Origin: Octopus vulgaris
Lineage: Eukaryota
DNA: 64,000 nt
Direction: 5' to 3'
Assembly (NCBI GenBank): GCA_951406725.2
Contig: OX597819.1
Span: 63,178,001-63,242,000, forward strand
Positions 23,855-35,062 of the stretch are shown piece after piece (position 1 is the stretch's first letter; each line of letters opens with the position of its first letter). The notes below the pieces were generated by a model. It made no database searches, was not told where the DNA came from, and saw only the letters and a program-made list of their open reading frames with translations. The position numbers and the translations under genes were made by a program.

Positions 23855-24100
23855 ATGACCTAGTAGTTACGTTGTCTCATGAGATCGGGGCTTAAATTCC
23901 TTGACCGTGTTGTGCGTTGTATGCTTAAATACTCTGCAATCACTTTAACATGTGACATGTGGTATACTGTGCACCTGTTCAAACATCGATTTGATGGAGA
24001 GAGACTGAGCCGATGTAGAGCAGATATAATTGATCACTATAAGCAAATCGCTTGCGCTGGCTGCCCTCGCAAGACATTGCACAAAATCCTTCGTGGAATA
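23855..24100 (+). mobile_element. Possible diverged SINE (family E)
   Basis: tgacctagtagtta...gcttaaattcc resembles a decayed tRNA head; single copy in window. Confidence 0.35.
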
Positions 24101-24649
24101 TGAACGACTACTACCATTCATTGTCTTGTATCATTTCCTTACCATGATCTACAAAATTTGATCTACCAGAATATGTATCGCCTCATGCGGCACTGTGCTC
24201 TCACATGAAGAAAAATTTGTTATATTCATATACATCCGAAGAGTGCATTTTGGGTTCGATCCTTGTAGGGGAATTTAATCTGCTGTAATTTTTCATTCGT
24301 CACGAAAATATTAGCACATGGTATGATTGATACTGTTGTCAGAAAATCTAAATACATGAAGACTTGAATGGATCCGACTCTGTGTGAGTGTGTGTGAATA
24401 CGCGGTTGTATACACGATACAGCATGACTGGAATTGATTTCATACATTGCTTTCCAGCATGATGTTCTTTCATCTATGCGTTCTATTCATATGTGTATTC
24501 CTGGATTCTAAGGAACTTCGATTGATATGGAATCAACTGAGACTGAGAGGAGACGCGTCTTTACGTACAGCTCTTTCACTTTGTGTCTCAAACGGTGTGA
24601 TTCTATGTAATACATGTGTACGTATATATCATATGCACGTAAATGTATG

Positions 24650-29057: not shown

Positions 29058-29258
29058 AGGGGACAAACAAGGACAGACAAAGGGATTAAGTCGAATACAT
29101 CGATCAATCCCAGTGCGTAACTGGTATTTATTTAATCGACCCCGAAAGGATGAAAGGCAAAGTTGACCTCAGCAGGACTTGAACTCAGAACGTAACCACA
29201 GACGAAATACCGCTACGCATTTCGCCCGCCGTGCTAACGATTCTGCCAGATCGCTGCC
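29058..29258 (-). mobile_element. SINE family B
   Basis: ggacaaacaaggacagacaaa...ccccgaaaggatgaaaggcaaag...ttgaactcagaacgtaa. Confidence 0.85.
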
Positions 29259-29326
29259 CTACACTAGTATCTGTAATAAAAAAATACTCCATACATCTTT
29301 TCCTCCACTTATTTAATGAACTGTCC

Positions 29327-29531: not shown

Positions 29532-29807
29532 ATTTTGTGAAATTTGATTTAGTATTTCTAAATTGAATTTTTCCTTGTAAGTTAGGAATAATATTCCCTC
29601 AAATTATTATTATTATGATATATATATAAATATATATATAATTAATAGTTATCGCCATATTTATATGGCAGTCTTATAAATATAAGACTAAAGCTGTCGC
29701 TGATTAGCTCCAAGAGGCCACCGCCTCAAGCTAGCTATTTGACACTCAACCTGCGTCCATTATAAACCTTCGAACAGGGGAGGTCAGCCGTTTCATCCTG
29801 CCAGTCA

Positions 29808-29858
29808 GACAGCTGCAGACATGTTTCAGGGTATTTGCCCTTTATCAATGCAGGTGTC
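29808..29858 (-). ncRNA. Putative type I hammerhead ribozyme, U3-A8 core
   Basis: Minus strand gacacctgca-TTGATAA-aggg/caaata/ccct-GAAA-catg-TC-tgcagctgtc: 9 of 10 bp stem I, palindromic stem III, GUC site. Confidence 0.8.
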
Positions 29859-29884
29859 GCTACTGACTGTCCCTGTTCGAAGAA

Positions 29885-29934
29885 TCTATTTACCTAGTTT
29901 CAGTGGAATACATCCACTTGTTTTCAATAATAGA
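29885..29934 (-). ncRNA. Second, atypical hammerhead-like motif upstream in tandem
   Basis: Minus strand tctatt-aTTGAAAAca-agtgga/tgtat/tccact-GAAA-ctagg-TA-aataga: 6-bp stems I and II, but an over-long core strand. Confidence 0.5.
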
Positions 29935-30639
29935 AATATTAAAATTACTAAGTCTCTCTAAAGGAGATTACATACATCCGCTTTGACAAACGCATATAAG
30001 AGGTAACAAACAACACAACACAAATGGGGACAGGTAGCATAAATAATTAAATGAATAAACGATTTGTCACGCAAATGTACATATACATACGTTGGGCCCA
30101 ATTCATTCAATCGTGTTCGTGCATCTGAACATCTTAGTTTCAACCATGGGCAACATTTGTTTGAGGATCTGCAGCTCTTTTGCCCCCACTAGTAAATATT
30201 GCATTTCAATACCACCGCTGTTTATCCAGGTAAAACCACTGAATTGGATCGATACCCGCTGGTAATGAATTGTTGCATGCGTTGCTGCTGGCATGCATTA
30301 AACGTGAACCTGTACCGTAAGACAAATGATGCGATTCTATAACATTTCTGCTAATACACTGCTCTTAATTTGTAATTTCTGTTTAGCTCGAAATGATAAT
30401 TCACATCAAATTAGAGTGAAGAGCGCAAGAACAAACAAACAGCGCATTCTGTACAACTGTGTGCCAATTCATTCCTTGTTCATACATACATGCGTAAAAT
30501 ACATACACTCACACATATATTCAGACACAAACACATATTTATATACATTTACCTACACACACGCGCGCACTCACACACGCGCGCACATACACACGCAAGC
30601 ACACACACACGCAAGCACACGCGCATTCTTCGGTTGTGT

Positions 30640-34649: not shown

Positions 34650-35062
34650 TATTTACTGCCCACACGGGGCTACACAGAGAGGAGACAAACAAGGAGAGAC
34701 AAACGGATTAAGTCGATTATATCGATCCCATTGCGTAACAGGTACGTATTTAATCGACCCCGAAAGGATGAAAGGCAAAGTCGACTTCGGCGGAATTTGA
34801 ACTTAAAACGTGACGGCAGACGAAATACCTATTTCTTTACTACCCACAAGGGGCTAAACTCAGAGACGACAAACAAGGACAGACAAACGGATTAAGTCGA
34901 TTACATCGACCCCAGTGCGTAACTGGTACTTATTTAATCGCCCCCGAGAGCATGAAAGGCAAAGTCGACCTCGGCGGAATTTGAACTCAGAACGTAACGG
35001 CAGACGAAATACCGCTAAGCATTTCGCCCGGCGTGCTAACGTTTCTGCCAGCTTGCCGCCTT
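34650..35062 (-). mobile_element. SINE family B dimer
   Basis: Two tandem units joined at gacgaaatacc|tatttcttt (~34830). Confidence 0.9.

Follow-up and report, generated by a model that had tools for sequence, protein, structure and literature searches.

A ~362-nt non-coding repeat family with one conserved hammerhead per unit, likely a retrozyme, in an octopus genome

The two hammerhead-like motifs in the 64,000-nt stretch of Octopus vulgaris DNA analysed here (the window) are best explained as the middle of a truncated copy from a family of ~362-nt non-coding repeats, which carries one conserved hammerhead per unit, likely works as a retrozyme and is likely reinserted by a Penelope-like element (PLE); we put the probability of this reading at roughly 0.8. 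Judged by alignment, positions 29971-29640 of the minus strand are a solo, 5'-truncated copy of the unit, and the site singled out by the first-pass annotation is the middle of that copy. The first 15 nt of the unit are absent, and the copy terminates in TA-rich DNA at the first of the family's two 3' ends. According to our model, tandem arrays would be transcribed, two hammerheads would dimerise by way of the stem III palindrome and cleave after GUC, once per unit, and a rod of 41-47 bp would keep the two monomer ends, 5'-OH and cyclic phosphate, close to each other and so favour ligation into a ~362-nt circle. The RT/GIY-YIG protein of a PLE would nick (TA)n DNA and begin copying at either of two internal sites that are spaced by ~60 nt, and such two-site copying would give insertions that are longer than one unit, 5'-truncated and often 5'-inverted. 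The features of the window copy are listed below, with the evidence in brackets.

29640..29971, minus strand: solo 5'-truncated copy of the ~362-nt tandem-repeat unit, assigned to a non-LTR retrozyme family (89% match to natural unit positions 16-362)
29885..29934, minus strand: upstream motif, 'HHR2', with a conserved hairpin at 29918-29902, one additional A at 29928 and stem II preceded by two additional bases (sequence, pattern counts, folding)
29854..29882, minus strand: 5' rod arm, which lengthens stem I and has an 18-nt deletion at 29854/29853 (alignments, deletion junction)
29813..29853, minus strand: HHR1, a type I hammerhead with a U3-A8 core, a stem II of 4 bp and the palindrome ACAUGU as stem III (sequence, core conservation, covariation, strict descriptor)
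29768..29812, minus strand: 3' rod arm, which takes in ccctgttcgaag of the 12-bp closing helix (folding, pair counts)
29641..29689, minus strand: a pair of hairpins and then GATAACTATTAAT, which is the first of the two 3' ends fixed across the family (alignments, folding, end mapping)
29617..29640, no strand: TA-rich target entered by the copy (sequence; family-wide end pattern)

The conserved hammerhead and its rod

The minus-strand U3-A8 hammerhead with a GUC triplet and a predicted cut at 29818/29817 (HHR1) reads in the sequence as first described, with U3 at 29848, a TTGATAA core, stem II as AGGG/CCCT, GAAAC-AT-GTC, and stem I as CTGCA/TGCAG. A strict hammerhead descriptor found HHR1 alone in the whole 64 kb and nothing in 20 shuffles. 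Among 84 aligned family copies the core is kept nearly throughout (G5 in 80, A6 in 81, G12 in 82, A13 in 82, A14 in 84, A15.1 in 84 and U16.1 in 81), and the sole variable core position, N7, changes by subfamily (T62/C17/A3). These 84 rows, drawn by custom patterns, are what remains of 172 BLAST matches once exact duplicates and copies not near full length are removed; they omit the most numerous subfamily, which was inspected separately.

Covariation across copies, which had been proposed as a check, spoke for HHR1: its stems are 95.6% paired and contain 130 doubly changed cells, in 7 of 13 pairs, a count that includes shared ancestry and stands for a handful of independent changes. The double changes in stems I and II are of the kinds G-C/U-A, G-C/A-U and A-U/G-U/G-C. 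RNAalifold returned only 12 pairs (-4.17 kcal/mol) for the 84 rows, probably because decayed copies break pairs, and pair support was counted on named structures in place of its consensus. The compensatory changes across subfamilies indicate selection on the ribozyme fold; HHR1 thus appears, from its conservation and covariation, to behave like a ribozyme under selection, and a single type I U3-A8 hammerhead within a long rod is supported. Stem III is palindromic in 75 of the 84 copies (ACATGT 31, ACTAGT 21, ACGCGT 17, ACGT 5, ATTAAT 1), and its words have predicted self-duplex energies of -3.1 to -8.9 kcal/mol. Since the palindrome is retained through four main spellings, HHR1 likely cuts as a dimer, by analogy with the short palindromic helices III reported to act in this way (PMC4209133).

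The perfect 12-bp helix that had been noted around HHR1 (29882-29871 with 29779-29768) was confirmed from the sequence. The rod is a feature of the family, 91.3% paired over 29 pairs, with compensations that are few but real and further ones visible by eye in the most numerous subfamily. In the predicted folds of five natural cut-to-cut monomers of 360-363 nt, the rod arms form the two ends of the molecule with 41-47 pairs between them, and the circular minimum free energies lie between -108 and -132, whereas shuffles average -79 to -88. The repeated unit is accordingly defined as the ~362-nt monomer between successive HHR1 sites, and from these folds we infer that the rod would clamp the monomer ends for ligation into a unit-length circle. 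Imposing the HHR1 fold on an intact copy costs 0.3 kcal/mol, versus 7.0 for HHR2.

The window copy departs from this arrangement by its 18-nt deletion, placed at 29854/29853 by alignment with intact copies, and owing to this deletion its predicted fold has stem I of HHR1 in register at a probability of only ~0.1. Part of the gacac/ctgtc extension in the window copy is also a product of the deletion. The deletion junction has only 2 matching places genome-wide, and a copy from a different subfamily (L152:1500-1720; G000:C15:59751) has the identical junction; the deletion hence has two separate origins, between short direct repeats. Because the window copy is both solo and deleted, release of a circle by this copy alone is likely impossible. 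The region around both motifs folds far better than chance (z -5.16; 0 of 200 shuffles). An Rfam search of the region returned nothing at gathering score, and the hairpin ribozyme RF04191 was rejected at 17.3 bits, where the gathering score is 210; the conservation of its loop B is absent, and the matching stretch varies freely among subfamilies.

The repeat family and its insertion marks

The exact hammerhead-core pattern has 2,727 matches in this microsatellite-rich, 2.8-Gb animal genome, at least one of them outside the family, compared with 1 for the reversed control. A first look gave 2,178 candidates for the family, of which 40 were scored. Head-to-tail units measure 360-364 nt, with up to five full units in one fetched array; the unit has a GC content of 0.40-0.42, is highly self-paired (z -7.18) and is non-coding, with no sense-strand frame of at least 60 aa. 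Copies lie mostly in head-to-tail and inverted arrays that end in (TA)n: among 49 non-overlapping loci, a head-to-tail junction is found in 44, an adjacent inversion in 30 and a solo copy in 5. They end at two fixed 3' positions ~60 nt apart, the first of which (GATAACTATTAAT in the window copy) is likely the site where reverse transcription starts. By the rule applied, 64 of 92 terminal cases enter TA or CA repeats, a few of the ends classed as 'other' in fact running on into the next unit. Parts of the unit occur in 19 of 24 listed sequencing runs, under four organism labels and with no RNA run among those listed, and every one of the unit's 29 bins is covered by contigs of four runs guessed to be RNA, a result that does not bear on expression.

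Of the subfamilies seen, the one with the most copies (TTGAAAA core, ACGCGT) was met at L156, L157 and L158 (G000:C1) as near-identical arrays of four to five or more units with an inverted head, which suggests that these arrays were inserted ready-made. A diverged copy at L164:~620-690 bears another stem III palindrome, ACCGGT. Elsewhere in the window, a 184-bp unit of SINE-like character, which we presume to be akin to octopus SINEs, is found in tandem at 34652-35013, and a further copy at 29060-29260 lies near the hammerhead copy. Two window ORFs searched against Pfam gave no match, and a 78-aa stop-to-stop frame of non-repetitive composition (23867-24103, plus strand) is without a Pfam match.

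Insertion marks of PLE type pervade the family, in the form of tandem junctions (44/49), inversions (30/49), an optional 3' tail and entries into TA or CA repeats (64/92), and these marks make it likely that the family is mobilised by a PLE. The same genome holds an intact 781-aa frame with RT and GIY-YIG domains and a CGRPNCGIC linker; a Cys-rich linker of this kind has been described for Neptune and Nematis (PMC8557442). From 6,136 GIY-YIG candidates, 150 were scored and 30 loci were examined, and 18 of these 30 contain the TTGATAA...GAAACAT core of HHR1; the pseudo-LTR (pLTR) of the 781-aa PLE has the same U3-A8 core with ACATGT. The genomic PLE, too, stops at two 3' positions, with ~38 nt between them, that run into (TA)n; this end pattern was matched at 15 of the 30 loci, all of them entering (TA)n, with the ~38-nt tail at 5. 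For a PLE of anole, such tails are explained by two internal RT start sites, and its hammerhead is described as needing protein and as dispensable for insertion in vitro (PMC11167929).

The ~362-nt unit had no sequence homology to 14 PLE pLTR/3' regions (z <= 1.3), and no family copy served as the pLTR of an ORF among the 30 GIY-YIG loci and one full element. A candidate autonomous partner sharing the tail was set aside, the 448 matches to it being members of an older subfamily of the ~362-nt unit itself. Five retrozyme loci contain PLE fragments, one of which lies directly against a copy in L019; the fragments are decayed, vary between loci and were not taken as partners.

One apparently intact young PLE was observed at L153:432-4590 (G000:C16:20834500-20841000), with a pLTR carrying a U3-A8 hammerhead, a 359-aa upstream frame without a Pfam match and then a separate 781-aa RT and GIY-YIG frame, a length that recurs in many of its genomic copies. 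The 3' UTR of this PLE has several degenerate GATTGGTC(A)...TGATGACGTC repeats (L037:1950-2420 and L042:1980-2330), which we take to resemble CCAAT and CRE boxes and which might function as a promoter lying upstream of the pLTR.

The upstream motif and alternative readings

The first-pass annotation had proposed tandem hammerheads, both nested in the rod, and had tied the proposal to conservation of the upstream motif within the family. The elements of that motif (TTGAAAA-CA-AGTGGA/TCCACT-GAAAC-TAG-GTA) are present and would direct a cut at 29891/29890, but the motif sits 5' of the rod, which takes up its 3' stem I strand, and across the family it is not conserved as a hammerhead. Its hairpin is conserved among the 84 copies and its TTGAAAA 5' half is nearly invariant. 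For the 3' half, 24-nt exact patterns gave T-GAAAC 344, C-GAAAC 769, C-GAAGC 270, T-GTAAC 164 and T-GAATT 129, such that GAAA is kept in 1,113 of 1,676 matches and broken in three ways in the other 563 (GTAA 164, GAAT 129, GAAG 270), and the 769- and 270-copy classes, the former being the largest, lack the pairing at the base of stem II. Covariation lends the upstream motif no support, with 1 doubly changed cell in 14 pairs, as many as 459 of 500 shuffles reach, a result unaffected by the misalignment of four AATAGA rows at the outermost pair.

Folding points the same way. The probability of stem I is at most 0.015, with its 3' strand in the rod and its 5' half in another hairpin; imposing the hammerhead fold costs 4.8-7.0 kcal/mol; and the self-dimer pairs out of register, with no duplex formed with stem III of HHR1. 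The motif, which in the window copy also shows an A-A mismatch beside the core, is admitted only by a descriptor relaxed after the fact for a bulge and two extra bases, and this relaxed descriptor matches 3 times in 20 shuffles. Based on these folds and counts, we consider the upstream motif likely to be a conserved hairpin in a hammerhead-shaped frame, inactive as a ribozyme. The predicted cut sites are indeed 73 nt apart in the window copy, but this spacing is the private product of the 18-nt deletion and is 91 nt in intact copies. The proposed circle of ~73 nt is unsupported, the upstream motif being unconserved and the 73-nt piece having one rod arm only, and the product would likely be an RNA circle of roughly 362 bases rather than 73.

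In our estimate it is very improbable that both motifs cut and that a small RNA circularises, whether of 73 nt as here or of 91 nt as in intact copies. This idea draws on the rarity of the hammerhead shape by chance, even under the relaxed descriptor in shuffles of 64 kb, on the retention of GAAA in the majority of matches with a nearly invariant TTGAAAA, and on the 145 copies that carry the AATAGA of the window, which could pair with TCTATT to form a 5-bp stem I. Weighing on the other side are the post hoc relaxation of the descriptor, the stem I probability and out-of-register dimer, the two extra bases and the broken pair of stem II in two classes, the GTAA, GAAT and GAAG forms in three amplified subfamilies, the lack of covariation, and the A-A mismatch or extra base beside the core, which Perreault et al. 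(2011; PMC3088659) give as a criterion for rejection, also describing a natural two-base insertion there that impaired cleavage. None of the 3 joints listed in the contigs guessed to be RNA fits a 91-nt circle (expected at L087 1611 back to 1521), although such contigs cannot show absence, ends or strand. A narrower version, in which the 145-copy subfamily of the window, with its 5-bp stem I, has a newly assembled, protein-assisted second ribozyme cutting a 91-nt RNA from the 362-nt monomer, seems to us just as far-fetched; were it true, the 91-nt junction would not re-form a hammerhead and the tiny circle could persist.

A better, still tentative, account of the upstream motif is that it is a decayed ancestral hammerhead, for example that of the PLE pLTR that gave the tail, whose hairpin was kept beside the RT start. 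Because GAAA is present in two thirds of the matches, 145 copies carry AATAGA and the shape is rare in shuffles, a relic origin is plausible; the three separate core breaks, the weak A/U-rich stem I, as in the PLE hammerheads of this genome, and the position abutting the second 3' end fit it as well. GAAA is, however, already absent in the subfamily with the longest terminal branches (mean pairwise difference 0.126 vs 0.03-0.04), a midpoint-rooted tree whose inner branches are weakly supported makes GAAAC look derived, and there is no homology to the sampled PLE pLTRs. Such decay and our preferred explanation are mutually compatible. More doubtful is the proposal that the unit is the detached pLTR of an unsampled autonomous PLE, or a linear multimeric RNA that forms no circle, with the hammerhead as a passenger. 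Scoring covered only 150 of the 6,136 GIY-YIG candidates, with 30 loci examined, and PLE insertion in vitro did not require the hammerhead (PMC11167929), yet the arrays run unit to unit with no ORF between, and compensatory changes preserve stems I, II and III and the rod across subfamilies.

Relation to known retrozymes and Penelope-like elements

In sequence and fold, the family has the characters by which metazoan non-LTR retrozymes are recognised, as these are described in PMC7229834 and bioRxiv 10.64898/2026.07.22.740005: non-coding tandem units of 170-400 nt (~350-390 in mussel), one type I hammerhead per unit, a GC content under 45%, high self-pairing and co-occurring PLEs. It differs from the retrozymes of those accounts in its U3-A8 core, in a stem I that grows into a ~45-bp rod rather than a short looped stem, and in arrays that bear PLE marks (two 3' ends, 5' inversions and (TA)n targets); the family is known here from genomic DNA, and its circle is a prediction. 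The same preprint bases the case for PLE mobilisation of animal retrozymes on co-occurrence and homology, and reports that 8 of 9 predicted retrozyme dimers failed to cut in vitro (bioRxiv 10.64898/2026.07.22.740005).

The minimal hammerheads of PLE pLTRs, as presented in PMC4209133, resemble HHR1 in the U3-A8 variant, reported in Schistosoma, and in a short palindromic helix III that implies a dimer. The ~362-nt unit is set apart from them by being free of an RT ORF and not homologous to the sampled pLTRs, and HHR1 by a strong stem I, a helix II of 4 bp and no extra base after A9. The family's pair of alternative 3' ends, its targets rich in A/T, its partial tandems and its inverted heads truncated at the 5' end recall the PLE tails and internal RT initiation treated in PMC11167929 and PMC8557442, except that the tail measures ~60 nt, against 30-40 nt there (PMC11167929), and belongs to a non-coding unit.

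Our literature search found no paper on the ~362-nt family or on a cephalopod retrozyme, although supplements might list the family; as far as its sequence allows it to be classed, this is a non-LTR retrozyme family that is new, within a class that is already known. Four amplified subfamilies have changed their stem III word and yet stayed palindromic, which amounts to natural evidence for action as a dimer. Finally, the PLE end-and-inversion signature on the arrays and the intact PLE protein in the same genome make up a pair with which trans-mobilisation and rolling-circle copying could be tested directly in vitro.
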